Part shown: piece after piece, positions 3,104 through 55,963 of the stretch
How the letters are laid out: each line of letters opens with the position of its first letter
How positions within the stretch are numbered: the stretch's first letter is position 1
Virus record (IMG/VR): IMGVR_UViG_3300035034_001213
Location: 9,034 to 73,033 of that record
Reading direction: 5' to 3' (one strand)
Origin: a virus
DNA length: 64,000 nt
Notes under the pieces: model-generated
Database searches by the model: none
The model's input: the letters and a program-made list of their open reading frames with translations, nothing else
What the model was told of the DNA's origin: nothing
Program-made: the position numbers and the translations under genes

Positions 3104-3499
3104 ATGACTGCGTTGATTAGAATGTACATTATTCACGCTGATCGCCCTACCGATGAGGTTAAACGCCGCCTGTTTCAGCAAAGTGGCTTCTACCCAGATA
3201 GGACCTATCAAATCTCAGATCAGAACAACGAACCGCCAACGCCATCACTGTGTCGATCGATCATGAGACAACACCTCGAGAAACGACACATTTTGATCCA
3301 CAATAAAGACGTACCGACAAACCTTGGATCGCTTACTCTTAAGGAAGTTCACCAATTGATTCGATATTCCTTTGGGTACAAGAACATTCCAAAGGAGCTG
3401 TTTCACTCAGATCACGTCGAGTTGATTGACGTAGGTCACGTCGATGGTCGCCTGCACGATTGTCGAGAATTCTATAGCAGTAACGTCAAGTCTGAATAA
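3104..3499 (+). CDS. Hypothetical protein
   Basis: 131 aa ORF with an AAGGA RBS. Confidence 0.7.
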   Translation: MTALIRMYIIHADRPTDEVKRRLFQQSGFYPDRTYQISDQNNEPPTPSLCRSIMRQHLEKRHILIHNKDVPTNLGSLTLKEVHQLIRYSFGYKNIPKELFHSDHVELIDVGHVDGRLHDCREFYSSNVKSE

Positions 3500-3534
3500 G
3501 AGGAGGCCAGAAGGCCTCCTCTATATTTTTTTTT
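3499..3534. terminator. Terminator between convergent genes
   Basis: AGAGGAGGCC-AGAA-GGCCTCCTCT hairpin plus a T tract. Confidence 0.85.
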
Positions 3535-3537
3535 GCT

Positions 3538-23210: not shown

Positions 23211-23250
23211 CAGGTGAAGTACACAACCTAACCTTTAAAGGAACGTGATT

Positions 23251-24807
23251 ATGAAAACTGTAAACAACATTGCATCTGTATCTATCCTGGTTATGGCAAT
23301 TGCAGGCTGCGGTGGAGGTGGAGGCGACAGTTCTAACGACACCACTACTCCAGTCTCACCAGATACCGGCGATACACCCACAACCACCAACGTCATGACT
23401 CCAACGTCTGAACTGAAAGGCGTTCAGACAGGCAGCTTTCAAGACGCGGCCGTTAAAGGTCTGACGTATTGGACCGCTTCCAACGGTCTGGGTGTTACTG
23501 GCGACGCTGGTAGTTTCAGCTTTGTCCCAGGTGAAGTCATTGCGTTGTACATCGGTAACGAGCTGCTCATCCTCACGGACGCTGAGCTGTACTCTACGCC
23601 TATGGACACGTTGTCTGTACGTAGTATCACCGAACCGGGTGAAGGCCACCCACACCAGTCTCTGAACGTTCTGAGGCTACTCCAGACCATCGACACCACT
23701 CCCGATCAAGATCTGATCGCTATTCCCGAAAGCTTTCACAACGATCGCAACGGTAATGTGGTTGGACTGAACTTCGCTCAAGACACCGAAGCCTTCGCCA
23801 ACTCGGCGGAAGTGGCGGCGATCTTGACTGAAGCGGGTAAGCAAGGCGAGCAACTGATCGATCGCAGTGTGGCGGCCGCGCACCTCAAAGCGACTCTGGA
23901 AGGTCTTGACAATAACGTCATCGATCTGCGGGGTACTTGGGTGGCGAACTCGTCTTACCTGGATCGCTTTGGTGAGACGCCCGAGTCTTCTTGTATGGAA
24001 GTGGGTCCAGCTACGTGGGTCGTGGGTGATAACGACGTGTTTCTGTACGGCGATGAGCTGAACAGCGACAGCAACGGGTCCACCACTACCTGTAACGGTG
24101 AGGATTACGGTCAGGCCGACATCAGCGATTGGCCGGGTGTCAACAACGCGACCCGTGACGGCAACGCCGGTGTTGAGTGGTTGATTGCCGATAATGGTGC
24201 CCTGGACTTCAACTGTGGTCCGGAATGCACCTTAGCTGAGCTGCGCGGTACGATCGACGATTGGGAAGAGCGTTGCTTAGCCAACGATTTCTACACCTAC
24301 AAGAACGAAGGTTCTATCATCGATCAAAGCGACACAGATTACTGTGCAGAAAGTGAGGACCACAACGGTCCAGTCGTAGGCTACTCTGAAATCACTTACG
24401 CCGATCGGCTGGGCGGTGATCGTATCCTGCGAGTCAAGCGTGACTTCTATGCCATCACCGCGCCTGCGTCTACCGCCGAGCGCGCTGACGACTTTGTCGA
24501 AAGTGGATTGGGGTTGGATATCATGAACCGTGAAGAGGCGCTGGCAGGGACGTTGGATCTGACTCAGGGTGAATGGGTTGAAAAGGTAATCTCCTCAACC
24601 GATACCCAAACGGTTGACGGTGGTACCTACGTCTTCCCGTTGGACAATGGCAACGTGGACTTGAAGTGTGCAGCAGGCTTTAACGCATGCACTTGGGAAG
24701 AACTGAACGACAGCTACAACGACGTCCAGTACATCCACGTCAGAGGCACTAACGTCATCAACTGGGTAGACGGCGACACAGTCGGTACGCTGACACGAGT
24801 CGAGTAA
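23251..24807 (+). CDS. Acidic lipoprotein of bacterial type
   Basis: Signal peptide with lipobox IAG-C followed by GGGGG and a Thr/Pro linker. The GSFQDAAVKGLTY..GVTGDAGSFSF domain resembles gammaproteobacterial surface lipoproteins. Has its own promoter-like motif and terminator. Confidence 0.8.
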   Translation: MKTVNNIASVSILVMAIAGCGGGGGDSSNDTTTPVSPDTGDTPTTTNVMTPTSELKGVQTGSFQDAAVKGLTYWTASNGLGVTGDAGSFSFVPGEVIALYIGNELLILTDAELYSTPMDTLSVRSITEPGEGHPHQSLNVLRLLQTIDTTPDQDLIAIPESFHNDRNGNVVGLNFAQDTEAFANSAEVAAILTEAGKQGEQLIDRSVAAAHLKATLEGLDNNVIDLRGTWVANSSYLDRFGETPESSCMEVGPATWVVGDNDVFLYGDELNSDSNGSTTTCNGEDYGQADISDWPGVNNATRDGNAGVEWLIADNGALDFNCGPECTLAELRGTIDDWEERCLANDFYTYKNEGSIIDQSDTDYCAESEDHNGPVVGYSEITYADRLGGDRILRVKRDFYAITAPASTAERADDFVESGLGLDIMNREEALAGTLDLTQGEWVEKVISSTDTQTVDGGTYVFPLDNGNVDLKCAAGFNACTWEELNDSYNDVQYIHVRGTNVINWVDGDTVGTLTRVE

Positions 24808-27538: not shown

Positions 27539-28639
27539 ATGAGATCAACTGGAATGGTAGTCGATTTAAATGAAGCTGTGTTCACGCGGGCCTTGGACGT
27601 CCCGGCTTCGGTCATGGACCTTGTCACCACCACAGATTCAATCCATAGGGTGATAAAACGACACAATCTCAACTCCAAAACGTTCTACCGTGAGTTTTAT
27701 AGCGTCTTTGGTGTGACCGTCTCTTCCTTTAGACACTTGGCGGGAGGAATGTTTATACCTAAGAAGTCAAGAGAGGTGCGGTACCTTGAGGTATGCTTAC
27801 CAACGCAAACGGTTACGACTGATCAACGTTTTGACTTCTCGGCTAGGTTACCTAGCGATCACCTGGAAAAGATTCAAGGCGCTTGTCGAATCTTAGGTAC
27901 ACGGCTCGCTGAGGTGGAAGTTACTACGCCTACGGGAAAAGTTTATCGGGAGTCAAACATAGAGTTGGACGTGAAAGGTACCAGTAAATTTCATCTAGAA
28001 TCCGAGTGTATTACTGTATCTCTCGATCAAGGTAAAATCGCAATCGCCAATCTCGAGCCAGGCACGACAACGTTCTTTAATGAAGACGACGTTCAACTGT
28101 CCGGTTGGGCGAGCGGAATCGATCATTGTCCAACCCAAGCAGGGTTCCTGGTTTGCGTAAAGATCAAAATCCCATATATCACCGGGGAAACGTGTCAGGG
28201 AGTTGACGGGCGGTGGAGGTCCTTGGAAGGACCAATTTGGACGTTTGTCGAAGACCTTGTTTCACATCCGATTCAATCGGTCACAAATAAGACCGTAGAA
28301 GATGAGTCGAGTAAAGAAGAAGTTCCTGACGAGTACTTCGTCACGGTCAATCCGGTGTCTCACAATGGAGGACTGTCTCCATTGGAGCCTGGATTTTCTG
28401 TGTTGGTGGTGATGAACAATCAGTTCCGCTTCTTAGCGCATATGTCAGCGAAAAATAGCGATGCGCCTTACAAAACCGTGAAAGAACTGATGATGTCAAA
28501 ACACGGACCTTGGTTTAAGGCTCAGGTGCGTGAAATTCTTGAACGGTACGTTGATGGTGAAATGACGTTGGTCTTTGGATTCCCGTTAGAATCTATTACA
28601 CCGCCCAACTTGCAATGGCGTCCAAGCCCGAGGGCATAG
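27539..28639 (+). CDS. Hypothetical protein with an N-terminal AraC-like HTH
   Basis: SIHRVIKRHNLNSKTFYREFYSVFGVTVSSFR. Confidence 0.6.
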   Translation: MRSTGMVVDLNEAVFTRALDVPASVMDLVTTTDSIHRVIKRHNLNSKTFYREFYSVFGVTVSSFRHLAGGMFIPKKSREVRYLEVCLPTQTVTTDQRFDFSARLPSDHLEKIQGACRILGTRLAEVEVTTPTGKVYRESNIELDVKGTSKFHLESECITVSLDQGKIAIANLEPGTTTFFNEDDVQLSGWASGIDHCPTQAGFLVCVKIKIPYITGETCQGVDGRWRSLEGPIWTFVEDLVSHPIQSVTNKTVEDESSKEEVPDEYFVTVNPVSHNGGLSPLEPGFSVLVVMNNQFRFLAHMSAKNSDAPYKTVKELMMSKHGPWFKAQVREILERYVDGEMTLVFGFPLESITPPNLQWRPSPRA

Positions 28640-29165: not shown

Positions 29166-30260
29166 ATGCCTTCGACATGGCGACTTCAAGTCATTAAAGA
29201 CAACCTGTTATTACAACTGATCAACTACCATCATCTAACGATTGATGACTTGGTGGAACGTCATCTGGTATCTAAGACTCGGCTGTACGAGCACTTTCGA
29301 GACGTCTTTCGTACAACCCCCGGTGCTTGGCGTAAACGGTATTGGCGTGGGTGTCATTGGGCAGCTCGCTTCTACTACAACGCCTTTGAGTTGACGGTGT
29401 GTCACGAGTTCCAAGATCAACGCATCGACGATACGTGTTACATAGACCCGATACTGGACGACGAAGACACGCCCATGACGTGGGACGTCATCCGAGTAAA
29501 AGCAACGATCGAGGGGCGCGTTCACGATTTTCGAACCAACCGTCCGATCTACGTGGGGCAATGGGAGGACATCCATTCTTCGGACAACAAGTTCACGCTG
29601 TCTATCCGTCTCTCTCGGGGGGGACGACACCCAGTGGTTACGGCGTACCTGAGTTTGGGCGGTCATCTTAGCGGTCAGATCTCTAAGTCGTACGACCTGG
29701 ATGTGACGGTGCGTACCCACATGGTTGGGTATGACGTGAATCAGTTAAAGCCTGCTCCTGTGGAACTGGCTCTACCCAAACCTATCTACATGAAGTTGGT
29801 GGATACCGGAGCTGAGTTTGACTTGAACCTAAGATCGGTCTACCTGTTGAAACTGGGCCCACAGACTTTGATCTTAGGGCTCTATGAAGGGTTAGATGAA
29901 ACCGACGTGAATCGTCTTCACCCTCAATGGACAATGACGCCGTTAAACAACGCTCTGAGACGAAAGTTGAGGACGGCGTTCCACACGAGCGAGTACGTGG
30001 AGGTCACGATGAGAACCGCTATCGAGATGCAAAAGCGGGTCGGTGCAGTAATGGATCAGATGGTAGGGGTGCCGGTGTGCTTCTTTAAGAAGAACGATCG
30101 GAATTACCTAGTTAAGTTCGACGGAGACTCGGACCTAACCTTGTTGACGAAACTGTATCCTTACATGGAGTCTTCCCCCACCCGGATTGCTGAGTCGGCC
30201 ATACCGACCCTAGCCAATCGGTACCAGGCTAAGGTGATTCACTTAAACGACTTATCCTGA
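29166..30260 (+). CDS. Hypothetical protein with an N-terminal AraC-like HTH
   Basis: LTIDDLVERHLVSKTRLYEHFRDVFRTTPGAWRK; AGGAG RBS. Confidence 0.65.
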   Translation: MPSTWRLQVIKDNLLLQLINYHHLTIDDLVERHLVSKTRLYEHFRDVFRTTPGAWRKRYWRGCHWAARFYYNAFELTVCHEFQDQRIDDTCYIDPILDDEDTPMTWDVIRVKATIEGRVHDFRTNRPIYVGQWEDIHSSDNKFTLSIRLSRGGRHPVVTAYLSLGGHLSGQISKSYDLDVTVRTHMVGYDVNQLKPAPVELALPKPIYMKLVDTGAEFDLNLRSVYLLKLGPQTLILGLYEGLDETDVNRLHPQWTMTPLNNALRRKLRTAFHTSEYVEVTMRTAIEMQKRVGAVMDQMVGVPVCFFKKNDRNYLVKFDGDSDLTLLTKLYPYMESSPTRIAESAIPTLANRYQAKVIHLNDLS

Positions 30261-30279
30261 AAAGCAGTTAAAACGACAT

Positions 30280-30314
30280 AAGAGGAGGTCCGAAGGCCTC
30301 CTCTATTTTTTTTG
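30280..30314. terminator. Bidirectional terminator at the strand switch
   Basis: AGAGGAGGTC-CGAA-GGCCTCCTCT plus a T tract, between the plus-strand and minus-strand blocks. Confidence 0.85.
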
Positions 30315-30349
30315 TCTTATCGTTTTAAATCACGATACCTATCTACTCA

Positions 30350-30604
30350 TCACTTGCCCATGATCTCGTCGTATCGGTTATTCGATTGAACGATGTAAGC
30401 CGCTCCGTATTTCAGAGGCGCGTGTTCTCCTGGGTGGACGATGCCTGCCAGTAGAGGCCCTGCCGAATACAGGATTACCGGCAAGTCTTCGATCTCTCGA
30501 CCGGCCAGCCGACACAAGGTCCCATAACTCACGGTTCGGTCGTATTTTACTTTACAATCCACCCCGTTAATGCTGATGGTCATCTTTACCGTGGGTTCTG
30601 ACAC
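30350..30604 (-). CDS. Small beta-grasp (multi-ubiquitin-domain-like) protein
   Basis: ISINGVDCKV..VSYGTLCRLAG..ILYSAG..GIVHPGEHAPLKYGAAYIV matches the recalled PF14452 Multi_ubiq pattern; GGAGG RBS. Confidence 0.55.
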   Translation of the reverse strand: MSEPTVKMTISINGVDCKVKYDRTVSYGTLCRLAGREIEDLPVILYSAGPLLAGIVHPGEHAPLKYGAAYIVQSNNRYDEIMGK

Positions 30605-30660
30605 AACTTACCTCCACGTTGGTTGATCGTACAAACAAGATATCTTTACGGGCTTTAGAG

Positions 30661-30894
30661 TTAGTCTCGCCCGGTCAACATGACCGTGTAAGACGCACCT
30701 TCCACCAACGGTACATCGTCGCCGCATTTGATGGTTTTTAATTTATCACCCGGATAGAGCGTGCATGTAACCTTGGGTCGGTATTCTACTGGCTGTACAG
30801 CCAGGGTACACAGTTTAGCGTAGTTGATGCTTTCAGCGGATATAATGTCGTGTTTTAGACCATTAACGGTAATACCAATGGTTTTCTGTGTCAC
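30661..30894 (-). CDS. Small beta-grasp (multi-ubiquitin-domain-like) protein, paralog of the neighbouring gene
   Basis: ITVNGLKHDI..INYAKLCTLA..IKCGDDVPLVEGASYTVMLTG; AAGGA RBS. Confidence 0.6.
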   Translation of the reverse strand: MTQKTIGITVNGLKHDIISAESINYAKLCTLAVQPVEYRPKVTCTLYPGDKLKTIKCGDDVPLVEGASYTVMLTGRD

Positions 30895-30910
30895 AGAGTG
30901 ATTTTTCCTT

Positions 30911-31714
30911 CTAGTTGAGTGTGTGTCTTTCGTAGGCCGCGGCCATTTTTTGGTCGTACTTATTTTTTGCGTAAGCAGGACCGTTGTACACCCTTGCGAA
31001 CGTTGGCCAGTCTTTCGACTTCAAGGCCTTCAGTAATCTGGCGTCGGCCAAGATAAACTTAACAAACCCATCCAACTGATGGCCTTCATTTGTGGAGTGC
31101 TTCTCCACGAAGTCTTGTATTGATGGGTAACCCAAGTTGTCCCAATGGAATCCCATTAACTGATATCGCCCGTAGGATGCGCTTTCTAAAGCAGCCTCGT
31201 CAGACAGCTTTCTAGCTGTCTGTAAGCGCGTCCATTCGTGAGAGCCACCACGGTAGCCCCCAGTGCTCGTATTGACGATGTCTGGTCTCTCAGAGCGTCC
31301 TAGATCCGCTGCCAGAGTCAGTCCCCGACTATTGAGTCGACGATTCATCCAGTGGCGCTCAAACAGCACTTTGGGTTGGCCTTCTTTGACAAACCCCCCA
31401 CCAGAGGACTCCACTTCAGAGACGGCTTTGATGGCTGCGATCTCCACGCCTAACGTGTCGGCTGCGCGGGCGATGTCCTGTGCGGTTAACTGCCAGGGGT
31501 CAACGTGATTTCCTCTGAGTTGTTCCCAGGTCCGTTTACCTGCGATACCATCGTCCAATAGGTTGTTCGCCTTTTGAAAGCTTACTAACGCTGCGTGGGT
31601 ACCGGGACCGAAGGCGCCGTCGGCCATTCCAGTAAGAAACCCTTTGTCTCTGAGGAGACGCTGAAGCTTCATAACGACTTTACCACTAGAACCTATCTTA
31701 ATCATCCGGGACAT
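30911..31714 (-). CDS. Modular endolysin: PG-binding domain plus DUF3380 N-acetylmuramidase
   Basis: DGAFGPGT..FQKANNLLDDGIAGKRTW (PG_binding_1); AVSEVES, LFERH, SASYGRYQLMGFH and YNGPAY (DUF3380). Confidence 0.92.
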   Translation of the reverse strand: MSRMIKIGSSGKVVMKLQRLLRDKGFLTGMADGAFGPGTHAALVSFQKANNLLDDGIAGKRTWEQLRGNHVDPWQLTAQDIARAADTLGVEIAAIKAVSEVESSGGGFVKEGQPKVLFERHWMNRRLNSRGLTLAADLGRSERPDIVNTSTGGYRGGSHEWTRLQTARKLSDEAALESASYGRYQLMGFHWDNLGYPSIQDFVEKHSTNEGHQLDGFVKFILADARLLKALKSKDWPTFARVYNGPAYAKNKYDQKMAAAYERHTLN

Positions 31715-32056
31715 ACATAACACCTACTTAGAACGGATTGTTTAGAAATTTCGTAAGAGGAGGGCATTTAACCCTCCTCTATATTCGGTTTTTAGAATGG
31801 ACTGTTAGCTGGTGTTAACGCGCTGCCTGATGAGAAGCCTGAGCTACTGGTGACAGCCGAGACGTTCCATCCAGTGCCGTTTGATCGATAGTCGATGACT
31901 GGAAGTCTAGGATGGCTTGTTTGTACGCATCGATCGCGGTATTCAGCTCTGTACGCTTGGTATTTAAGTCTGCAATGGTGCTCGTGCGTTTCCCCAGTCT
32001 TTTTAAACGATGTCATAAGATAAAGCCGAAATACAGGAGAGCCTAAGCCCTCCTTT

Positions 32057-32821
32057 TTATTTCGTTGATTTAAAGAACGTCTCACCCATCCAACCGATAG
32101 GATCGTACTTGTGAAAACGCACGGCCCCAGGTTTCTCATGATGATTGGCGTGCCAACAGTCTCCTAGAACAAAAGGAAACATCAACACGCTGTTGTGCGG
32201 TTCGTCGATGTGGTCTCTACCCCAATTGTGACCCCAAGTATTGGCGAGTGATTGGAGCTGCCAAGTTAAGGCCACGGGCGCCCAAACTAATGCAAGGGCC
32301 CAGACCGGCGGCAATAGAAACAACGCCCCAAAGAAGATAGGGCCGTAGATGTGCCAGTAGTGATTGTGGAACCACACGTGCCACTTCGATCGAAGAAGTC
32401 GTCCTGCGTGTCGGCCGCTGACCTTACGAAACGTGTACCCCAACAACTGAACCGACAACCAATGACTCCTCGCTGGGCTGTGAGGGTCACCAGAGAGCCC
32501 CTGATGCTTGTGGTGAGCATTATGAGTCGCTACCCATCCGAGTGTACTCCCCTGAAGAGACAGGCCGCCTATGAAGGTCAAGAGCGCTTCTATTGGCCAT
32601 GGGACGTTGACTGCGTTGTGAGTCAACACCCGATGGTACATGAAACTGATGCCCAACTGACTGATCACGTACCCCAACAACAACGACACACCCAACGGGC
32701 CCCAGGCACCTTGGATCATCAGTGCCAGAATCGATAGGTGACACAGAACGATCATAGCGTAGTGCATCACTCGGTTCATTGGCAGCGTTTCAATGTTCAG
32801 CGTTTGTAATAAGGTACTCAT
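32057..32821 (-). CDS. Membrane fatty-acid desaturase (delta-9/DesC-like), copy 6
   Basis: His boxes HRVLTH, HNAHH and HANHH; DPHSP motif; transmembrane segments. Confidence 0.9.
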   Translation of the reverse strand: MSTLLQTLNIETLPMNRVMHYAMIVLCHLSILALMIQGAWGPLGVSLLLGYVISQLGISFMYHRVLTHNAVNVPWPIEALLTFIGGLSLQGSTLGWVATHNAHHKHQGLSGDPHSPARSHWLSVQLLGYTFRKVSGRHAGRLLRSKWHVWFHNHYWHIYGPIFFGALFLLPPVWALALVWAPVALTWQLQSLANTWGHNWGRDHIDEPHNSVLMFPFVLGDCWHANHHEKPGAVRFHKYDPIGWMGETFFKSTK

Positions 32822-32848: not shown

Positions 32849-33772
32849 TTACAACACCGCAACGTTGTAGGCTTTCTCAAAGATCTTATCTAGATCGCCG
32901 TACCGATCCAGCTGTCGTTTTACGTTCGCCCGGATCTGAGTCACAAAGGCATCGTCCAGATGTTCAGAAACCATCATCGCTCGATTGTAATACATCCGGT
33001 AAGGTATCTGAATGAACAGTCGGTCGATTTTATCAATAGGTAACCATGGGGCTTTCTTACTTGAGAAATCCGTGATGGTAGCGTGTAACATACGAACTTG
33101 ATGTCGCATGCATTGCGACGACGAAAAGATTTCGCACATCACCTCTTCAGGCTTTACCAACATTCGACCAAGCAACAGACCCTTCTTCAGATCGCCCATC
33201 ACCCGATTGAGGTAATGTTTCGGCATACCGCGATCCAAACAGTCACCGCTCATGTAGTGACTCAGAAGCGTTTCACAGTTCAGGACGTCTCTTAAGACCG
33301 TCAGATTGAACACCACGGTACCCATAGAGAAATAGCTACGCGACCGCATGTAACGATCCAAGTACCTCGGGTCGTATTTAGGGTATGCCTTTCCCCAAGT
33401 TGTCAATTCAAACGGGCGATCTGGACGCATAACAACGGCCTGATCTTTAAGGTCCACGTTCGCAATGTCAAGAAGCGGTCTGTTACACAGAGTCGTCACA
33501 TTAAACAAAACCATCACCGACTGATCGGTCTGGTTTAAAGCGTGGTCCAACGCCGATACTGAGTTAGCGTCATTTAACTGAATGTACTCCAGATCGGTGA
33601 ACGCATTTTCGAGACGCTGACGAGTCAAGACGTCGTCGTAGAAAACCGTGAGAGTCCAACTCGGATTTTTTCGACGGTAGGTACTGATCGAAACAATCGC
33701 TTGATTGATACTTTCCCACGGAACCACAAATCCAGAGATGACCATAGTTCCTCCGTTAGAACGTTCGTTCAC
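32849..33772 (-). CDS. Glycosyltransferase family 8-like protein (degenerate DxD)
   Basis: GT8-like layout: VSISTY..N, YFSMGTVVFNL (like YFNSGV), LNRVM and DFSSKKAPW (like HF.G..KPW). The DxD position reads NVT. Confidence 0.6.
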   Translation of the reverse strand: MNERSNGGTMVISGFVVPWESINQAIVSISTYRRKNPSWTLTVFYDDVLTRQRLENAFTDLEYIQLNDANSVSALDHALNQTDQSVMVLFNVTTLCNRPLLDIANVDLKDQAVVMRPDRPFELTTWGKAYPKYDPRYLDRYMRSRSYFSMGTVVFNLTVLRDVLNCETLLSHYMSGDCLDRGMPKHYLNRVMGDLKKGLLLGRMLVKPEEVMCEIFSSSQCMRHQVRMLHATITDFSSKKAPWLPIDKIDRLFIQIPYRMYYNRAMMVSEHLDDAFVTQIRANVKRQLDRYGDLDKIFEKAYNVAVL

Positions 33773-35937: not shown

Positions 35938-38295
35938 CTATTGACGATTGGTTAGCAAATCAAAGAGTTGATCAATTTGATTCTGCATCCCAGCCATCTC
36001 GACTTTCATCTCATCCAGTTCAGTGGATTTCTCATTGAAACCTTGAACCAATAGAGGTATGATGTCGGTATACGCCAGTGCTTTCTTATCATCTTCACGG
36101 TAACGCAGCAGCTCTGGAAAAACCTCCGCCGCCTCATGCGCCAGGAAACCAAAGCGTACCCGCCGCTCAGGGTCATCCTTGAAGATGTATTGCTTGGCCA
36201 ACAGTCGGGTCAATTTCTCACTGACCGGACCAATCGACTCGATCGCTTCTTTTAACGACTCATCTGACGAGTAGACAAAGTCCGCTGCCGTGATGATACC
36301 GGTAACCGTACTGTCTCCAGACTTCGTCACGTATTGAGAATCGTGATCGCCGCTCGTACGGTGGTCATTCATCGCTTTGGCTTGCAAGATAGTCGTTGTC
36401 GCACTCGACGTACGTGACGCGGTGGTCGGTTGATTTACTTCAGCACCAGTCTCTATGCCGTTAAGTTTCGACTTGTCACCGATGCTTTGGAAACCAGCGT
36501 CAGTCGTACTGGCCACAGGAACCGTAGCCGCAACGCCAGTCGACGACGTTATTGTTCGGTTATTGCCTGAGCCCCCAACCGCCAGATCCGTATTCACGTT
36601 CACTTCAGCGCCAGCTTCAACGCCGTCCAACTTGGTTTTATCGGACGAAGACATCCAACCTGCCAAGGTAACCGTTGCACTACCGATGCTGGTATTGCTA
36701 CCCGTCGACGACGTGATGGTCACTGATCCGGCAGCTCGATTCACCCCCAGATCAGTGCCAACGTTCACTTGGGCACCAGCGGCGATTCCGTTAAGTTTCG
36801 ACTTGTCGCCGATACTCATAAAACCAGCGTCTGTTGTCGTAACAACCGGTACTGCAACGTTACTGCCGGTGCTGGAGGCGAGCGTTAAGCTGTCGCCGGT
36901 TCCCGTCAACGAAAGGTTTGTGTCAACGTTGGGTTGCGCACCAGACTGAACGCTGTTTAACTTGGTTTTGTCCGCCGAAGTTAAAAGTCCAGCGGCAGCG
37001 GTTGTTGCCGAAGGGAGAACAACGTTCGTACCGTTGCTGTTGGTGATTGTAATGGTGCCTGAAGAGACCGACTTGTCAAGGTTCGTTGAAACGTTGACTT
37101 GTGCTCCGACTTCAACCCCAATTAACTTATCGTAGTTAGCAATCGACATCAAACCCGCTGTGGTGCTGGACGACACAGGTAACGCGACATTCGACCCGGT
37201 GGAAGATACGATAGTCCTGGCGTTGCCACTGCCACCTAAGGACAAGTTTGTGTTGACGTTAACTTGTGCTCCGGCAGCGATGCCTGAGAGTTTGGTTTTC
37301 TCAGCCGCGGTGTAGTCCTCGCTGGACAGTCCTTTACCAGAAATCTTATCGACCTTGCCGTTCAAAGACGCGTCGAGTTGGGTCTGCGTGTAATACCGTG
37401 CGTCGTGGTCGGCACTCTGGCGGTGGTTGTTCATCCCCGCTGCTTGAAGTACCGATGTGGTACTGGTACTGGTTCGAGACGCCGTAGTGGTTGGGTTTAC
37501 CTGTGCCCCAGCGGCAATGCCCGACAACTTGGTAAATTGAGCGGGGGACATCAACCCTGCGTCGACTGCATCTGCCAAGTCTAAGACAAACCCAGTACCG
37601 TTGCTGTTGGTGATAACGTACGAGGTGGCACTGCGAGTAACCGATAGATTACTATTAATGTTGCTTTCAGCACCTGGCTGGATGCTGTTTAGCTTAGTCA
37701 ACAGGGCGTCGGTAAAGTCGTTCTCGGACAAGGCCTTGCCCGTTACCTTATCGACTTTGTCGTTCAAAGCGGTCCCCAACCCTGAGATTGAGGCGATCGA
37801 CAGATTGTCTAGGTCTGCCCGGTTGAGCTTGATGTAATCGACAATTTCTTGCAACTCATTCAGCGTTGTATCGTCACTGTTGATGAGTGCGTTGATTTGA
37901 TCGACCGCATCTTTAAGAACCTTGCCCTGGGCGGCAGACAGGGGTACGTCTGTGCTGGTGCTGGTGAGGTTGTCGACGATGGACGAAATATCGACCTTCA
38001 AAGCCAAGGCCGCGTCCGCCAGCGTCTTCGTGTAGTATCGAGCGTCGTGGTCGTCGCTGGCGACGTGATCAAAAATACCCTTAGCCGTCAACAGACTGCC
38101 TTCGCTATTGATGGTTCTCAACGAAGTAATGGCGTTTGGCAATTCACCGAGGCCTACTTGGGCCTTAGTGACAGCGTGTGGATTCGACGTATCGGCGATG
38201 TGCGTGTCTGTTGAGACGAGGAGAGTATCGAGCTTCTCCTTCAATGCAGCAAAGACGGCATCGATCGACGACTTAAGCTGAACGTTATCGGTCAT
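35938..38295 (-). CDS. Tail fibre protein with C-terminal intramolecular chaperone (peptidase S74)
   Basis: NPHAVTKAQVGLG motif, roughly 55-aa AGxMSxxDKxKLxGIxxGAxVN repeats, and the chaperone motif SSDESLKEAI..FGFLAHEAAEVFPELL..LAYTDIIPLLV. Confidence 0.9.
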   Translation of the reverse strand: MTDNVQLKSSIDAVFAALKEKLDTLLVSTDTHIADTSNPHAVTKAQVGLGELPNAITSLRTINSEGSLLTAKGIFDHVASDDHDARYYTKTLADAALALKVDISSIVDNLTSTSTDVPLSAAQGKVLKDAVDQINALINSDDTTLNELQEIVDYIKLNRADLDNLSIASISGLGTALNDKVDKVTGKALSENDFTDALLTKLNSIQPGAESNINSNLSVTRSATSYVITNSNGTGFVLDLADAVDAGLMSPAQFTKLSGIAAGAQVNPTTTASRTSTSTTSVLQAAGMNNHRQSADHDARYYTQTQLDASLNGKVDKISGKGLSSEDYTAAEKTKLSGIAAGAQVNVNTNLSLGGSGNARTIVSSTGSNVALPVSSSTTAGLMSIANYDKLIGVEVGAQVNVSTNLDKSVSSGTITITNSNGTNVVLPSATTAAAGLLTSADKTKLNSVQSGAQPNVDTNLSLTGTGDSLTLASSTGSNVAVPVVTTTDAGFMSIGDKSKLNGIAAGAQVNVGTDLGVNRAAGSVTITSSTGSNTSIGSATVTLAGWMSSSDKTKLDGVEAGAEVNVNTDLAVGGSGNNRTITSSTGVAATVPVASTTDAGFQSIGDKSKLNGIETGAEVNQPTTASRTSSATTTILQAKAMNDHRTSGDHDSQYVTKSGDSTVTGIITAADFVYSSDESLKEAIESIGPVSEKLTRLLAKQYIFKDDPERRVRFGFLAHEAAEVFPELLRYREDDKKALAYTDIIPLLVQGFNEKSTELDEMKVEMAGMQNQIDQLFDLLTNRQ

Positions 38296-39148: not shown

Positions 39149-40024
39149 CTAAGGGGTAAGTGTGGGTAATTGGGAAGGATTGATGTCGCTGTTCAGAGCA
39201 AAGTCAGACACTGCGTTCTCATCAATCGCTCTGGATAGATCCCACGTGCTGAGGTCGTCTGTCATACCGGTACTGTTGGCAAAGAATGAGTTTGCATTAG
39301 CGATGTTGGTGGTCGTCCAATGCGCCAGCCGCAAGGGTTCAACCAATGACGTCCCACGGAACATATTCGAGGCATCGGAAGCGGTTCTGAAATGAGGCTC
39401 GTCTGTGGCCGTGACGCTGAAGTTTCTCTTGGCGTCGAACGCGTTGGCCCAATTGTCCATAATGAACTCAGCACCCCACGCCTCGATATCCACCAACCAA
39501 TCTCGGTCGTCTATCAAGCTGCCGCTGGAGTCGTAAGAGCCTTCGGCAGTGCCTGTGACTCGAACTCGGTAACTCCCAGGCTCCTCGTACGTGTGTGAGG
39601 GTTTGGCGCCATTAACGAAATCCTCCATGCTACCGTCGCCCCACTTGATCGTACCGGTGAAGTTAATAAAGCTTAACTCCACAGTAGCGTTCTCAGCATC
39701 GACCTTATCGGTCTTCACCAGCCAGACCATTGGATTGCCCAAGATACCGGTCATCAAAATAGCGGCAATCTCACTGCGTCTCAACTCGCCCATCAATTCT
39801 GGGTTTGAGAAGAACTCGTCGGTGAACATCGATGGGTTGTCCCGTTTAGCTTGAAGTACTACCCACGCAAAAGCATCGCCTTCGTTTTGCGCTAAGGATA
39901 GAGCCGAATCAAGATTCGCTCGAGTAATAAGACCGTCAGCAAAATCGAGAACGGCCTGCTTGTAGGCATCGATCGCTGAGTTCATCTCGGTACATTTAAC
40001 GTTTACATCTGCCAGCGTTGCCAT
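39149..40024 (-). CDS. Putative virion surface protein: PKD/Ig-like domain plus DUF285/BspA-like repeats
   Basis: IKWGDGS..SHTYEEPGSYRVRVTG (PKD); NMFRG..LAHWTTTNI..DDLSTWDLS (DUF285-like). Confidence 0.7.
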   Translation of the reverse strand: MATLADVNVKCTEMNSAIDAYKQAVLDFADGLITRANLDSALSLAQNEGDAFAWVVLQAKRDNPSMFTDEFFSNPELMGELRRSEIAAILMTGILGNPMVWLVKTDKVDAENATVELSFINFTGTIKWGDGSMEDFVNGAKPSHTYEEPGSYRVRVTGTAEGSYDSSGSLIDDRDWLVDIEAWGAEFIMDNWANAFDAKRNFSVTATDEPHFRTASDASNMFRGTSLVEPLRLAHWTTTNIANANSFFANSTGMTDDLSTWDLSRAIDENAVSDFALNSDINPSQLPTLTP

Positions 40025-40065: not shown

Positions 40066-40097
40066 AAGAGGAGGCCCGAAGGCCTCCTCTATTTTTT
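40066..40097 (-). terminator. Hairpin terminator after the desaturase array
   Basis: AGAGGAGGCC-CGAA-GGCCTCCTCT; on the minus strand the loop is TTCG. Confidence 0.75.
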
Positions 40098-40901
40098 CGT
40101 CGCGGCTTTCAAAACATCGCTCAAATCGCAGGCGTCGTGGCCACGTCTAGGTTTCTTTATCAACCAAATTACCCAAGCGGCTGGATCGATCTCCCACCAT
40201 TTTATTTGCGTGTTCCAACGAGTTGGATACATGTGATGGTTGTTGTGCAGTCCATCGCCTAAAGTCATTACGTGCATAAACCAACTGTTTCTACTTTCAT
40301 CGGTTGTGTCGTAGTTACGGTACCCCCACTGATGTCCAGCAACATTGAACAGTCCTTTCAGATGAAACATACACGCAGCCGGAATGCAGTATGCGTAAGC
40401 TGCGATCTTCCAATCAATCAAAGTCAGGACAAGGCTGAACATCAATAGAATAGGTACGTAGTATTTATGCGTAAACTTGAAGAAGGGGTCTTTCAGTTCT
40501 TTCTTGATCAACCTGAGTTCAAGGTGCGGTACGTAATCGGTCCAGTCGCTGAACCACGACGTTAAAACCCCTCGACCAACAGGACTGTGAGGGTCCTTCT
40601 CAGTGTCTGTGTGCTTATGATGCGATCGATGGACCAACGTGTTGGTCAACGGTGAGGCGATGGTGCACAACATACCACAGAAGATTAGAAGATACCGAAT
40701 AGGTGCGTAGGTCTCAAACGAGTTGTGGGCAAGCATGCGGTGGTAGCCTATCGTGACTCCTAAGAATCCGTATGTTAAATAGGCGATCAACGAGACCTGA
40801 AGCCAAAACCACCAACCATTATACACTGCCGCAGAAATGAACGACAATGCTCCAATCTGCAACGCGAGCTGCAAGTACTTCAGTTGTCGAACTTCAGACA
40901 T
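40089..40901 (-). CDS. Membrane fatty-acid desaturase, copy 5
   Basis: His boxes HRMLAH, HRSHH and HNNHH; WWEIDP. Confidence 0.92.
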   Translation of the reverse strand: MSEVRQLKYLQLALQIGALSFISAAVYNGWWFWLQVSLIAYLTYGFLGVTIGYHRMLAHNSFETYAPIRYLLIFCGMLCTIASPLTNTLVHRSHHKHTDTEKDPHSPVGRGVLTSWFSDWTDYVPHLELRLIKKELKDPFFKFTHKYYVPILLMFSLVLTLIDWKIAAYAYCIPAACMFHLKGLFNVAGHQWGYRNYDTTDESRNSWFMHVMTLGDGLHNNHHMYPTRWNTQIKWWEIDPAAWVIWLIKKPRRGHDACDLSDVLKAATKK

Positions 40902-40913
40902 TAGTCTTCTCCA

Positions 40914-41672
40914 CTATGTCGGTTTTTTGATAAGCCAGATTATCCAAGCCGCTGGGTCTAGTTCCCACCAGCGAATTTGAGTGTTCCAACGACCGGGGTA
41001 TTTATGGTGGTTGTTGTGCCACCCGTCGCCGAACGACAATATGTGCATTGGCCAACAGTTGCGACTATCCTCGTCAGTATCAAACGATCGATACCCCCAG
41101 GAGTGACCGAAGACGTTTGAAAACCCTTTGTAATGATAAAAGAACAAAGCCGGTACGCAGTACAAGTACACAGCTACTTTCCAATCAACCAATGCCAGCA
41201 TTACCACAAACAACAATAAGATTGTAGCGTAATGTTGATGCGTGAACTTAAAGAAGGGGTCTTTCAACTCCTTTCTAGCGGTTCGAAGATCTAACTTCAA
41301 ATCAATGCCCATCCAGTCTCCAAACCAAGTTCCTTTGTATCCCATTACGCTTGGACTGTGTGGGTCCCTAGCTCGGTCTGTGTGTTTGTGATGCGATCGG
41401 TGAACCAGTACGCCAGTCAACGGTGAGGATACCGAACACAGCATTCCACAGAAGATCAGCAGATACCGAATGGGAGCGTAGGTCTCAAACGAGTTGTGGG
41501 CAAGCATGCGGTGGTAGCCTATCGTCGTTCCAAGAACACCCACAACAAAATACACCAATAGTGCCCAACCAAACCACGACCACATCTCTTGATAGATCCC
41601 ATAAGGAATGGCCACAATCGCAATCGCGTGTGTGGCGATTTGAAAATATTTCAATTTGGTTGACGGTTGCAT
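40914..41672 (-). CDS. Membrane fatty-acid desaturase, copy 4
   Basis: His boxes HRMLAH, HRSHH and HNNHH; start ATG 41672 overlaps the upstream stop. Confidence 0.92.
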   Translation of the reverse strand: MQPSTKLKYFQIATHAIAIVAIPYGIYQEMWSWFGWALLVYFVVGVLGTTIGYHRMLAHNSFETYAPIRYLLIFCGMLCSVSSPLTGVLVHRSHHKHTDRARDPHSPSVMGYKGTWFGDWMGIDLKLDLRTARKELKDPFFKFTHQHYATILLLFVVMLALVDWKVAVYLYCVPALFFYHYKGFSNVFGHSWGYRSFDTDEDSRNCWPMHILSFGDGWHNNHHKYPGRWNTQIRWWELDPAAWIIWLIKKPT

Positions 41673-42430
41673 TAGTACCTCGGTTTCTTTATCAAACGGA
41701 TAACGACGGTTGGAATATCGACTTCCCACCAACGATCCCAGTTGTTCCAGTCGTTAGGGCGTGCATGATGATTGTTGTGAAATCCTTCACCGCCTAATAA
41801 CCAAGACACTAGCAACGAGTTGACTGACGCATCGTCCGTATCGTAGTTTCGATAGCCCGACGTATGGATCCACGCGTTTGCAAAACCAAAGAGGATTCTT
41901 AGTAATGCAATCGGTAGTGCATACGCAAACAAAAACAAACGCCAATCGATGACTAACAGCAACGCTACCCAACTGTAGATGATCTTAAAGTACTGGCGGT
42001 GAAAGAACAACATGTCTGGATCTCGAGTCAGATCCCGTATCGAACGAGGCGAACACTTCGACGTATCCATACCGATCGAGAACCAGGCTCTGAAGAACCC
42101 CATTGTCTTAGGACTGTGTGGATCTCCAGGTTTATCTGGGTACATGTGATGGGTTCTGTGTACCATGGCCCAAGTGACTGGTGAACCAAGACACATCAAT
42201 GTACCACAGAACAGTAGAAACCACCGAACCGGAGTGTACGTAACAAAGCTGCGGTGCGATACGTATCGATGAAAGCCAACCGCGTTACCAAAGACGCTGA
42301 GAGTCAAGTAAACTCCCAACGTCCACCACAGCCAATGCCATTGCTGACTGTGGATTAGGTAAGTAACCGCGACTATTCCAAAGACCGCATTGAACATCGT
42401 CAGTATGTTCGACTTGCGAGCTTCAGTCAT
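41672..42430 (-). CDS. Membrane fatty-acid desaturase, copy 3
   Basis: His boxes HRYVSH, HRTHH and GEGFHNNHH; GGAG RBS before ATG 42430. Confidence 0.92.
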   Translation of the reverse strand: MTEARKSNILTMFNAVFGIVAVTYLIHSQQWHWLWWTLGVYLTLSVFGNAVGFHRYVSHRSFVTYTPVRWFLLFCGTLMCLGSPVTWAMVHRTHHMYPDKPGDPHSPKTMGFFRAWFSIGMDTSKCSPRSIRDLTRDPDMLFFHRQYFKIIYSWVALLLVIDWRLFLFAYALPIALLRILFGFANAWIHTSGYRNYDTDDASVNSLLVSWLLGGEGFHNNHHARPNDWNNWDRWWEVDIPTVVIRLIKKPRY

Positions 42431-46914: not shown

Positions 46915-47324
46915 GCGGCCTCCGCCATACACTCGTCTTTGAAATATTGGACCGTGAAATCCACCCACCGACCTTTTAGGGGAATGTTCTCAATGCCCCC
47001 TAAGGCCTCCAATATGATGTCGTACGATTCCTTGTCTTGGGTGTAGGGTACAAAGTATTCATCAGTTCCGTATAAAAGCATGGGGTCGTTTAAGACCTCA
47101 TAGAACGGTTCGTTGAAGTGTTCCCAAAGTAACCGAGAATAAATCAAAGCAACCGCGTATGACTTTCCTGGATAAACCGATTCTTCCCGAGGGTCTAACA
47201 AATACTCCAAAGCCGGACCTACGACGTCTTCTCGATCAATGATCGTCTCAAAGTTTTCGACAGCGTCGGTGTGGACTTGGGTCATAAGGTGATATAGCTT
47301 CTGATTGGCTTTCCATTCTTTCAT
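46899..47324 (-). CDS. Hypothetical protein in the radical SAM cluster
   Basis: 141 aa, translationally coupled on both sides. Confidence 0.7.
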   Translation of the reverse strand: MKEWKANQKLYHLMTQVHTDAVENFETIIDREDVVGPALEYLLDPREESVYPGKSYAVALIYSRLLWEHFNEPFYEVLNDPMLLYGTDEYFVPYTQDKESYDIILEALGGIENIPLKGRWVDFTVQYFKDECMAEAACFKI

Positions 47325-48409
47325 GAAGCACGCCGCTCCCAGTTAAACTCTTCACGCATCTCCCTTGCGGTTGAAATACAGTGTTCGGAGTCGGTAATGG
47401 TCATCACTTTCTGGACTCCCCGCTCAGCGCACTTGGCAATGAACTCACACCCGTCACAGATGCCGTTGGTTTGCGCCAACGACAGACACTCGATCATACC
47501 GTCCTCTTCTTGACGAAAGATGTTCTCGAAGGTCCAGGGACCGTCCACTCGATGCTCCGGTTCAAAGGAGGAGAAGGCTTCCACAATGAACGGAGGCACA
47601 AACATCTCACCGTTGCGGTACACCACGTCCCAGTCTTCCCCTTCGTTCATCTGCAACTCAACGATTTCGAAATGTTCCTGACGCTCGTTCGCAGCCATCC
47701 GTGACTGGATAAGCAACCGGTTTAGGTGTTCAAGACTGGACAGGAAATTTTCTTGATTGACGGGATCTCTGAGGCTCTCTCGACCGTGAGGAAGAATGAA
47801 ATCGCTGTGCGACGTCGGATGGAGATTGACGTGGTACGCTCGAGTAAGGATGTCCTTAGTCAGAGTGAAGCCGCGTTTATGATCGTTGGCGATCGACTCC
47901 TCAAAGTTAACGACGCTGTAGACTCGAGTGATCTTAACGGTACTTAAGCAGCTTTCGAAATACGCCACCCTGTTACGAATGCCTTCGATGTACGCTGGGT
48001 TGTCAATGTGACGCACCTCAAACGGCACCGTAAACTTCAGAAGACCGTTAGGAATCAACGCTTCGACTTGTTCCGCCAACTTTTCATAGACCTCAGGTTT
48101 CGGATCTAGGAACGCACAGTTCAAGGTGGTCTTGAGAAACCGCTGAGCAATCTGCTTGATCCTCGGGTGTTCCAAGATCAAGTTTTTGTTCTCGGAGCTG
48201 AGGATGTCTGTGGGACCCAAGATAAAGTTGAGGACCTCCAACTCAGCGGTTTCAAAGGTATCGATCATTCGATCAATGCGATCAAACTCTTCAAGGGTTG
48301 GGAATCGATTGTCTTCTTTCTCAACCATACATCCCGAACAATTGTGTCGACAGCCACTTGCGATTTCCATAGTGAAGTCGATTAACTTATTAACTTGTGA
48401 CTTGTGCAT
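47321..48409 (-). CDS. Divergent radical SAM protein with a C-terminal Cys cluster
   Basis: CRHNCSGC (CxxxCxxC); C-terminal CDGC..KC..C; no GGE motif. Start moved to ATG 48409. Confidence 0.75.
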   Translation of the reverse strand: MHKSQVNKLIDFTMEIASGCRHNCSGCMVEKEDNRFPTLEEFDRIDRMIDTFETAELEVLNFILGPTDILSSENKNLILEHPRIKQIAQRFLKTTLNCAFLDPKPEVYEKLAEQVEALIPNGLLKFTVPFEVRHIDNPAYIEGIRNRVAYFESCLSTVKITRVYSVVNFEESIANDHKRGFTLTKDILTRAYHVNLHPTSHSDFILPHGRESLRDPVNQENFLSSLEHLNRLLIQSRMAANERQEHFEIVELQMNEGEDWDVVYRNGEMFVPPFIVEAFSSFEPEHRVDGPWTFENIFRQEEDGMIECLSLAQTNGICDGCEFIAKCAERGVQKVMTITDSEHCISTAREMREEFNWERRAS

Positions 48410-48413
48410 AATT

Positions 48414-49469
48414 TCACCAACTGCATTTATAGCTGAGTTTACCGAGCACCGACAAACACTCATGCGTTCCTAATAACCTCTGTACTCGATGTACCCCTCG
48501 AGTTGCGCACTTGCTGACAAACCGACACCGAGAACATTCGTTAGATTCACCAGCACGGGTGATGGATTCGAAAAAGGTCTCTTGATCGGCCTGTTGGATC
48601 TTGTCAAGTGTCCAGGGTTTCTTGAATTTGAAGTCGTCGTGAAAAATGGTGATCGGACTGTTAATAAGGGGGGCTATATACAGGTCGCCATTGCGATACG
48701 CCAGATGATAATCGCACCCAACGTGCTCACCCAGATCGTCGATCTTAAACTCGTACCCTTTGTCCACCTGATTGGCAAACATTTCGTTTTGCTTCAAGAT
48801 GGTTCTTAAGAACTCTTCTCGGTCTTCGTTAACCGACAGGTCACGGCGGCCGTAATGAAACACAAACGTGGTGGTGTCTGACTTTTCAAACAACTCGATG
48901 TGTCGGGTCTTATGGAGCGTCTCTTCACTGACAACGCCTTTGTCCATCAGCGACTCGGTCATATTCACGATCGCGGTAACACTCCCGATCCCCACCGACT
49001 TCAGATTTTCATTCAACCAGTTGATGCGACCCCGGAGCTTTTCAACGTACCCCAAGTTGTCGTGATGCTTTAATTCGAAGGGTACCAGAAACTCCGCGTT
49101 CAACCCTGGCATAAACGCCTCGAGCTCTTCAGCAAACTGAACGTACGCGTCCGGATCGGGGTTCAAGAAGGAGCAGTTGAACACCACCGACTTAAACCCT
49201 TTTAACATCTTTCGAACCGCAGGGTGAGTTAATACGTCTTGTCGATTGCTGGCGGACATGATGTCTACCGGTGCAAACTCCATCCAAGACATCTCCCATC
49301 CACGACTGCGTACGTCGTCAATAATCTCACTGAGCGCTGCGAGATCGGCTTCTGTGTATGGGGTAATGTCTTTGGTGTTAACGCTGCACCCAGAACACCC
49401 GTAGTCACAGTCTTTTAACAACTCCAGCGCTAGATTGCCGATGTTGTCCCCTCGAACCATGGTTGTCAT
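48414..49469 (-). CDS. Divergent radical SAM protein, paralog of 47321-48409
   Basis: CDYGCSGC; C-terminal CSRC..KC..C; shares (C)xFLxP.P..Y and VPFE motifs with its neighbour. Confidence 0.75.
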   Translation of the reverse strand: MTTMVRGDNIGNLALELLKDCDYGCSGCSVNTKDITPYTEADLAALSEIIDDVRSRGWEMSWMEFAPVDIMSASNRQDVLTHPAVRKMLKGFKSVVFNCSFLNPDPDAYVQFAEELEAFMPGLNAEFLVPFELKHHDNLGYVEKLRGRINWLNENLKSVGIGSVTAIVNMTESLMDKGVVSEETLHKTRHIELFEKSDTTTFVFHYGRRDLSVNEDREEFLRTILKQNEMFANQVDKGYEFKIDDLGEHVGCDYHLAYRNGDLYIAPLINSPITIFHDDFKFKKPWTLDKIQQADQETFFESITRAGESNECSRCRFVSKCATRGVHRVQRLLGTHECLSVLGKLSYKCSW

Positions 49470-54901: not shown

Positions 54902-55963
54902 CTATCCCACGTTCAAAGCAGGGATGATCTCTGTCTCTCCGTACTTAAAATGAGAGAGTAACATTCTCAATCCAGGACACGAATTTCCTTGCCAAACAAG
55001 TCGATGACAGTCTCCACCACACACATCGAGTAGGTGACAACTTAAACAATTGGGGTTTAAGTCCAGTTCCTTGGTGATGCGGTCCATTCTACCTTCGCTG
55101 GTTAGGAACTCTTCCACGGTGTCGTCCAAGGTACCGTTGGCTTCGACTTGTGCGCCGTTAGCACATCCACCAATACTGCCTGCCCCATCGATAGTGAACA
55201 AGTTCTGTTCGCAGTCCCGACAGTTGGTGTCAACTCTATAATTGTTGGTAGTGAACTTGGTTTCTATGGTGTCTAGCGTACCGATCTGGTAATTCGGCTT
55301 TAGCCGTTTGTAGGCAAAGTACAAGTCGTAATAGAACTTATCGACCGCCCGGTTGTCTGGGAACATGTGAGGGTTGTCTACCGCGTTACCGTCTGAGGTC
55401 AAGCGTTCTACAGCGATCTCAGTCACCCCAAAGGTGTCCCACAGTTTAATCAACTCGTCCACGTCGTAGTTCAAGATCTGATCGGTGACGGTCACAAACA
55501 TCTTGACCTCGATGTTGAGGTCGTTCATGGTCTTCAAGTTACCCAGCCATTGATTGTACATGCGCTCGGTTTTGAAACGGTACACCGGGTCCCAACTCGT
55601 GCCGATCAAACTCCCCATGATCTTTTCAAAGAAATGAAGGTGTTTGTCGGTCAGCTTGTAAATCAGATTGGTGGTGGCCCCAATGGTAATGTCTTCCCAT
55701 ACTTCTTCGCCGACCAGACGTTCCACTTCCAACGCGAATTCCCAGTGCTCGTGGATGGGTCGTAGAAAGGGTTCGCCCCCGTGGAGTTCCAGATGTACGT
55801 GCTCGCCTGGAAACCGTAAAGCCAGATCACTGACCCACCGTGCCACCTTTCTCGGGTCCCAGGCCGTCTTAGCGCCCTTAGAGCCGGAGGTAAAACAATG
55901 ATCGCAATCTAGGTTGCATGTGTCGGTTGGTTTAACGTAAACAACCTTAGTCATAATTTCCAC
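54902..55963 (-). CDS. Radical SAM/SPASM peptide-maturase-like protein
   Basis: KPTDTCNLDCDHC, HGGEP; SPASM CRDC..GC..CLSC..CGGDC..C. Confidence 0.92.
   Translation of the reverse strand: MEIMTKVVYVKPTDTCNLDCDHCFTSGSKGAKTAWDPRKVARWVSDLALRFPGEHVHLELHGGEPFLRPIHEHWEFALEVERLVGEEVWEDITIGATTNLIYKLTDKHLHFFEKIMGSLIGTSWDPVYRFKTERMYNQWLGNLKTMNDLNIEVKMFVTVTDQILNYDVDELIKLWDTFGVTEIAVERLTSDGNAVDNPHMFPDNRAVDKFYYDLYFAYKRLKPNYQIGTLDTIETKFTTNNYRVDTNCRDCEQNLFTIDGAGSIGGCANGAQVEANGTLDDTVEEFLTSEGRMDRITKELDLNPNCLSCHLLDVCGGDCHRLVWQGNSCPGLRMLLSHFKYGETEIIPALNVG

Follow-up and report, generated by a model that had tools for sequence, protein, structure and literature searches.

The stretch of virus DNA analysed here, 64,000 nucleotides long and referred to below as the window, comprises bases 9034-73033 of the 73,033-bp IMG/VR virus record IMGVR_UViG_3300035034_001213. 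[quoted passage not shown] The function that we favour for them, at a probability of about 0.35, is that of orphan Ubls serving as decoys or dominant-negatives of Bub/Bil-type conjugation in the host, a proposal that comes from sequences and structural models. The two genes are:

30661..30894, minus strand: UblA gene, a 77-amino-acid open reading frame (ORF) ending ...LTGRD, with a predicted single-domain Multi_ubiq-type beta-grasp product
30350..30604, minus strand: UblB gene, an 84-amino-acid ORF ending ...NNRYDEIMGK, a divergent paralogue of UblA

An AlphaFold2 model of UblA, built on an alignment of 13 sequences, has beta-grasp topology with a mean pLDDT of 86.5 and a pTM of 0.69: strands at residues 5-10, 13-18 and 22-24, a helix at 25-31, and further strands at 41-45, 53-55, 60-62 and 68-72. 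Two of these strands (22-24 and 60-62), one preceding the helix and the other within the S4-S5 loop, make up an extra strand pair; in bacterial Ubl3 proteins a pair of this kind buttresses the helix of domains 2 and 3 (Gong et al.). When the model was compared with 48,161 chains by VIA-align, a method independent of Foldseek, four chains reached Z ≥ 8, all of them Multi_ubiq/BubA proteins—the C-terminal domain (residues 140-220) of the Type II Bub Ubl3 of E. coli ZDHYS365, 9cd2_B, at Z 10.0; the Type II Bil Ubl3 of Methylobacterium brachiatum, 9d5b_A, at Z 9.8; Citrobacter BubA residues 155-229 in complex with its E1, 9eav_C, at Z 8.7; and Citrobacter BubA, 9d59_A, at Z 8.6—and the next best, among other ubiquitin-like domains, stood at Z 7.0. 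Foldseek against the PDB returned in ranks 1-5 the entries 9d59, 9cd2 (chains A and B), 9d5a and 8u38 (E 8.3e-4 to 5.2e-3, TMq 0.65-0.76); ThiS (3cwi) ranked sixth with E 9.8e-3 and scored Z 6.2 in VIA-align. An initial annotation of this DNA, made from its letters alone, had likened the two proteins to Multi_ubiq beta-grasp domains, and for UblA the structural matches, the best of which by both methods are all multi-ubiquitin/BubA proteins, bear it out. In the viral structure library the best matches were ubiquitins of eukaryotic viruses, and these were weak (best E 0.022). The single-sequence AlphaFold2 model of UblB, with a pLDDT of 55, is too poor to use.

Sequence profiles point to the same proteins. 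Phmmer searches of the PDB sequences with UblA and UblB gave no match. The profile of the family found as its best PDB sequence match residues 145-219 of the 222 of 9cd2_A (E 0.033), aligned end to end; this segment is the third, C-terminal and conjugated domain of Ubl3 from the Type II Bub system of E. coli. The resemblance to Pfam PF14452 (Multi_ubiq) itself, also claimed at the outset, holds for the family and less well for the two proteins: UblB scores 13.6 bits (E 0.079, residues 9-65; 13.1 bits in the six-frame search) and UblA has no match, whereas the homologue P0011, which shares 52% identity with UblA, narrowly passes the gathering cut-off of 24.5 with 24.8 bits, and P0002 reaches 24.0. 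Multi_ubiq matches eight of the 13 family members at E ≤ 1, as it does six of ten homologues scanned singly. By Pfam's own rule the membership of UblA and UblB, as judged from these scores, is transitive and not direct. In the ESM Atlas 28 of the 30 feature matches of UblA fall in the Multi_ubiq set, with scores of 0.91-0.92 and 196-201 shared features, and two of its three top clusters are labelled 'commonest Uroviricota'; UblB gave no lead there (best score 0.80).

The ORFs of 77 and 84 residues that the initial annotation took to be paralogous are indeed present on the minus strand, and in a single BLASTP comparison their products are 29% identical over about 80 columns (E 1e-7). The motif that it read as common to both, I.VNG...Y..LC.LA...G..PL..GA.Y.V, falls on the positions that are conserved across the aligned family (N11, G12, C29, P40, G58, P62, L63, Y69 and V71). 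In the family comparison UblB shares 39% identity with P0004 and 36% with P0002, as against 26% with UblA, and a recent tandem duplication as the origin of the pair was rejected because UblB lies nearer to P0004 and P0002 than to UblA. The idea that the two are chance ORFs was likewise set aside: since homologues are conserved at 35-67% identity, UblA and UblB are real conserved genes.

The family is small. A phmmer search with UblA against 1.84 billion representative sequences gave eight matches at E ≤ 0.001, five of them full-length homologues of 71-79 amino acids (E 1.2e-13 to 5.6e-5); the other three (825, 867 and 320 amino acids), long repetitive proteins with short partial matches, were excluded. 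A profile word search of 5.8 billion proteins found 12 proteins of 55-84 amino acids, including UblA and UblB themselves or near-identical copies, none of which carries a functional name, and the word search with UblB found as sole relative a copy 96% identical to it. The alignment used here (A6) comprises 13 distinct sequences, P0001 and P0010 having been left out as near-identical to UblA or UblB. No relatives came from tblastn with UblA and UblB against 50,697 phage records at E ≤ 1, from IMG/VR scans with UblA, UblB and P0011, or from two scans of metagenome contigs; a word search for longer, fused forms of the Ubl, itself weak evidence, found none. None of the 13 family members matches a PHROG family at E < 0.05, no PADLOC model matches UblA or UblB, NCBIfam gave a single match at chance level, and a hidden Markov model of the family, run across the window, found no copy beyond UblA and UblB.

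The C-terminal tails set the two proteins apart from most of their relatives. Ten of the 13 aligned sequences retain the Gly of a 'TG' motif placed after the last strand; of these ten, six have Asn directly after it and eight have exactly two residues after it, the last residue in seven of the eight being Gly (3) or Ala (4). Read from the alignment, the consensus C-terminus of the family is thus ...T-G-N-Gly/Ala-COOH, a tail of four residues that, like conjugated Ubls, ends in a small one. BubA of Synechocystis plasmid pSYSX has F-T-G at the same point, followed by seven residues ending in Gly. The clade of the window departs from this consensus (UblA TGRD, P0013 TGR, P0011 RSAK), and the 11-residue tail of UblB, ending IMGK, is unrelated to it. 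The initial annotation had drawn attention to a Gly one or two residues before the end of each protein. This is literally true of TGRD and IMGK, but in the alignment the two glycines occupy columns that do not correspond, that of UblA being the Gly of the strand-end TG motif and not the terminal residue: in seven of the eight relatives with a two-residue tail, the terminal Gly or Ala sits two positions after the TG Gly.

Three further features define the immediate surroundings of the pair:

30610..30615, minus strand: GGAGGT Shine-Dalgarno sequence, 5 nt 5' of the UblB start, read from the sequence
30911..31723, minus strand: endolysin gene (PG_binding_1 plus N-acetylmuramidase), identified by Pfam and PHROG matches and adjoining UblA upstream
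30281..30304, both strands: GC-rich hairpin from a terminator scan, terminator-like, its T-run strong on the plus and weak on the minus strand

Both Ubl genes start with GTG. That of UblA has a weaker Shine-Dalgarno sequence, AAGGA, 11 nt before it. The ESM Atlas entry for UblB begins at residue 8, a Met, which would give an alternative form of 77 amino acids; the upstream GTG is favoured because its Shine-Dalgarno sequence is strong. The endolysin gene was recognised by its matches (PF11860 Muramidase, E 4.8e-65; PF01471 PG_binding_1, E 2.1e-15; phrog_1224 endolysin, E 2.9e-103), and the pair lies downstream of this gene as first described, the gap between the end of the endolysin gene and UblA being 16 nt. 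The hairpin lies 45 nt past the UblB stop, between convergent plus- and minus-strand gene blocks. Fibres had also been said to be encoded nearby, and a tail-fibre gene does occupy 35938..38295 on the same strand as UblA and UblB. The two genes are apparently co-transcribed behind the endolysin gene, and the neighbouring genes would place them in the late block; a scan of 29900-32200 for the sigma-70 consensus showed no promoter-like site. As to the endolysin gene itself, its annotated GTG start has no Shine-Dalgarno sequence, and for this reason the true start may be a downstream Met. Upstream of it, about 330 nt (31724-32056) without a convincing ORF separate it from a desaturase gene.

The enzymes that a conjugated Ubl would need were sought in the whole 73,033-bp record. 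No E1 or E2 had been visible to the initial annotation, and none emerged: ThiF, Prok-JAB, JAB, Prok-E2_B and DUF6527 gave no match at E ≤ 1-10, other E2 families lying outside the search, and the JAMM motif is absent from all 244 ORFs of at least 80 amino acids. A 520-amino-acid ORF at 23245..24807 with two GxGxxG motifs was considered as a hidden E1 and discarded, having neither a Pfam match nor a PDB sequence match. Because the record is only about 27% complete by CheckV, the absence of E1 and E2 is weak evidence.

Ubl loci with their flanks were recovered in three cases: the window (73 kb) and two others, here called L003 (15 kb) and L008 (9.6 kb). L003 is an IMG/VR contig, about 25% complete, in which a terS-like and a terL-like gene flank the Ubl domain and genes for primase and ribonucleotide reductase are close by, and which contains no ThiF, JAB, Prok-E2_B or DUF6527 match over its 15 kb. 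Here the Ubl (3287-3825, plus strand) is split over two frames at a GC-repeat (about 3643-3651), a 124-amino-acid upstream ORF ending in the first two strands; from its sequence the locus would be a pseudogene or else a fusion, frameshifted or mis-assembled, in which a domain of about 100 amino acids precedes the Ubl. L008 (9625 bp) is a phage head-neck module in which the Ubl forms the C-terminal 75 residues of a 161-amino-acid ORF, between the Neck1 and head-protein genes and adjoining a homing endonuclease gene. L008 is filed in a Patescibacteria metagenome-assembled genome (MAG), probably by mis-binning; its GC content is 59% as against 41% for another contig there. The only ThiF above the family cut-off in that MAG is on a low-GC contig other than L008, among neighbours that are transporter-like (by sequence reading, no family search having been made) and with no JAMM motif or Ubl nearby; it was rejected as a partner cassette on these grounds. 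All three loci with context are thus phage late, packaging or head-neck modules, with different neighbours each time, and the Ubl gene is absent from two phages whose endolysins are related (51% and 41% identity). In this the Ubl behaves as a mobile accessory gene.

The decoy reading, to which we give the probability of about 0.35 stated above, would explain four things together: the kinship to conjugation Ubls, the missing enzymes, the accessory-gene behaviour and the degenerate tails of the clade. UblA and UblB would act in trans on Bub/Bil-type E1 and E2 enzymes (and peptidase) supplied by the host, occupying the Ubl-binding site of the host E1. With their altered tails—TGRD in UblA, the 11-residue tail in UblB—adenylation or transfer would probably be poor, because the T-G-N-Gly/Ala end is replaced, and poor transfer would make them competitive, non-productive ligands. 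Host Ubl conjugation would then be blunted late in infection, during the production of virion parts. [quoted passage not shown] A broader version, which we regard as rather unlikely, has the window's proteins belong to a dedicated phage family of orphan BubA/BilA-like proteins, alone or N-terminally fused and expressed late, that poison or hijack Bub/Bil conjugation in the host, for example by blocking E1 or capping Ubl filaments.

Several points weigh against UblA and UblB being decoys. The proposal presupposes Bub or Bil in the host of this phage. Among known anti-defence genes, early ones are commoner than late ones. Both proteins are under the Pfam Multi_ubiq cut-off; the fold of UblB is inferred by homology alone; and hhalign of the family alignment with Synechocystis pSYSX BubA, which put 60 columns of domain 1 in the right register, gave P 0.0059 and a probability of 6%, the template being a single sequence and the test a weak one for that reason. 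The enzymes may lie elsewhere in the genome, given records about 27% (the window's) and 25% (L003) complete. The T-G-N-Gly/Ala end of most relatives suggests, on alignment, that the family is a genuine conjugation substrate and not an inert plug. For Bub operons, finally, the account of Ye et al. drawn on here has no phage protection as yet shown in E. coli.

Of the other explanations the one that survives best, possible though doubtful, is that UblA and UblB are beta-grasp adaptors of the late programme that are never conjugated—for example chaperones or assembly factors of virion parts, or proteins that partner or regulate the endolysin—for which the ubiquitin fold would be merely a small binding module. 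Tail assembly protein I of phage lambda has a ubiquitin-like fold, and the settings are apt, all three being late, structural or packaging ones (an endolysin gene near a tail-fibre gene; between terminase subunits; Neck1-head); moreover two relatives carry N-terminal extensions of about 85-105 amino acids, common in adaptor proteins, and the C-termini vary inside the window's clade (TGRD, TGR, RSAK). However, the neighbours differ at all three loci, so that no conserved partner gene is evident, and the two phages with related endolysins do without Ubl genes. Nor is this a known core structural family, given that none of the 13 members has a PHROG match, and the nearest structures are conjugation Ubls (Z 8.6-10), generic beta-grasps coming no higher than Z 7. 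A direct part in lysis as holin or spanin was rejected: UblA and UblB have neither transmembrane segments nor lipobox-type signals (maximum 19-residue Kyte-Doolittle means 0.72 and 1.45, respectively; grand average of hydropathy about -0.05), and the confident UblA model is that of a soluble beta-grasp.

That UblA and UblB are instead genuine tags of a conjugation system encoded by the phage itself appears unlikely. The E1, the E2 and a trimming peptidase would be in the missing ~73% of the genome; the peptidase would remove the residues past the tail Gly, and the phage would conjugate its Ubls to host or virion proteins to its own advantage. A record only about 27% complete leaves room for such genes, and the precise T-G-N-Gly/Ala C-terminus of most relatives is what real Ubl tags have. 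In 12 BilA proteins a short overhang follows the reactive Gly (Hor et al.), and BubCD trims BubAB. In the described Bil and Bub operons, however, the Ubl gene is beside its enzymes, whereas none of the three loci with context has a ThiF in its flanks of 73, 15 and 9.6 kb; the sole above-cut-off ThiF in the MAG of L008, on the low-GC contig described above, does not alter the count. A role as ThiS/MoaD-like sulfur carriers for phage metabolism, for example with the window's radical SAM enzyme, is very improbable: ThiS is among the fold matches (3cwi) and a radical SAM gene is present (54902..55963, minus strand), but ThiS/MoaD scores Z 6.2 as against 8.6-10 for the Multi_ubiq structures, the tails have no Gly-Gly, the 73-kb record has no ThiF/MoeB-type enzyme, the radical SAM gene is 24 kb distant, and Pfam ThiS gives no match at E ≤ 1.

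With the 73,033-bp record about 27% complete, the phage itself is probably large and mostly unseen. A megablast search with the 4 kb that surround the two genes found no near relatives among the 50,697 phage records, seven of ten large ORFs tested lack a Pfam match, and the best matches of the endolysin, 47% identical, are in Erwinia and Ralstonia phages. The public runs that contain the stretch are lake-water metagenomes only, all of DNA, with no RNA run listed.

Some other genes of the record are worth describing. Between the tail-fibre region and the endolysin gene lies a fatty-acid desaturase gene (32057-32821, minus strand; PF00487, E 9.6e-12), possibly an auxiliary metabolic gene, and beside it a 307-amino-acid ORF (32849-33772) with no Pfam or PHROG match. 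The convergent plus-strand block is closed by two ORFs of about 365 amino acids (27539-28639 and 29166-30260, both plus strand) with weak, sub-threshold N-terminal helix-turn-helix matches (HTH_AraC, E 0.23; HTH_18, E 0.052, and TetR_N, E 0.071); on these matches they may be paralogous regulators. The minus-strand block contains further tandem paralogue pairs, at 40089-41732 and 47321-49469: a pair of ORFs of about 270 amino acids both match phrog_35201 and a pair of about 350-380 amino acids both match phrog_31457, PHROGs of unknown function. Within the same block is the radical SAM gene already mentioned (PF04055, E 1.4e-8). Two ORFs probably specify surface or fibre accessory proteins: one of 291 amino acids (39149-40024, minus strand) with PKD and DUF285 matches, and one of 619 amino acids (62075-63934, minus strand) with BNR/Asp-box repeats.

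Conjugation of Ubls in bacteria, as in Bil, Bub and Type II CBASS, is a newly opened field. Were the poisoning or hijacking reading true, these proteins would rank as the first counter-measure of a virus against ubiquitin-like immunity in prokaryotes, and would also provide indirect evidence that phages are in conflict with Bub operons. As counter-defence they would form a new class, pointing to natural conflict over these pathways; otherwise they would suggest that the ubiquitin fold has been put to a new use, in the assembly of virions or in lysis. An enzyme-less phage family of BubA-like proteins is in addition a concrete reagent for probing Bub and Bil reactions. A literature search for phage-encoded Multi_ubiq proteins or viral inhibitors of Bil or Bub found none, paper supplements, among them those of Ye et al. 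and Gong et al. that tabulate the operons, being outside the search. The Multi_ubiq family is known; it is the setting—phage-borne, enzyme-less, paired, in a late operon—that is undescribed.

Among known systems the closest in structure are the BubA proteins of Type I and II Bub, from 6E/DUF6527 operons (9cd2, 9d59, 9eav/9ea8). They resemble UblA in the beta-grasp with its extra strand pair, they are its best fold matches (Z 10.0, 8.7 and 8.6), and the profile's best PDB match is to their conjugated C-terminal domain. UblA and UblB differ in having one domain per gene, whereas three domains occur in 53% of Bub Ubls and a single one in 40% (Gong et al.). They differ also in being encoded by a phage, with no E2, E1, JAB or BubE nearby and a C-terminus that is not Gly, and are known here from their genes alone; in Synechocystis, by contrast, a complete Bub-type operon on pSYSX surrounds the multiubiquitin protein, and no such operon accompanies UblA and UblB. 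The Type II Bil Ubl of M. brachiatum (Ubl3; 9d5b, 8u38) has the same Multi_ubiq-type fold (Z 9.8), and Type II Bil Ubls are mostly single-domain (78%; Gong et al.), as are UblA and UblB. Bil operons, in the account of Ye et al. drawn on here, always carry E2, JAB and E1 beside BilA, none of which is near UblA and UblB, and BilA ends in Gly or is trimmed to it (Hor et al.), unlike the tails found here. ThiS and MoaD are likewise small single beta-grasps, but UblA stands structurally farther from them (3cwi, Z 6.2) and has neither a Gly-Gly tail nor a ThiF/MoeB partner. The v-ubi of baculoviruses and the ubiquitins of giant viruses share with UblA and UblB the property of being a host-type tag encoded by a virus, though the similarity is weak and confined to the fold. 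Those eukaryotic-virus proteins closely copy the ubiquitin of the host, carry a Gly-Gly tail and work through the host's ubiquitin enzymes.

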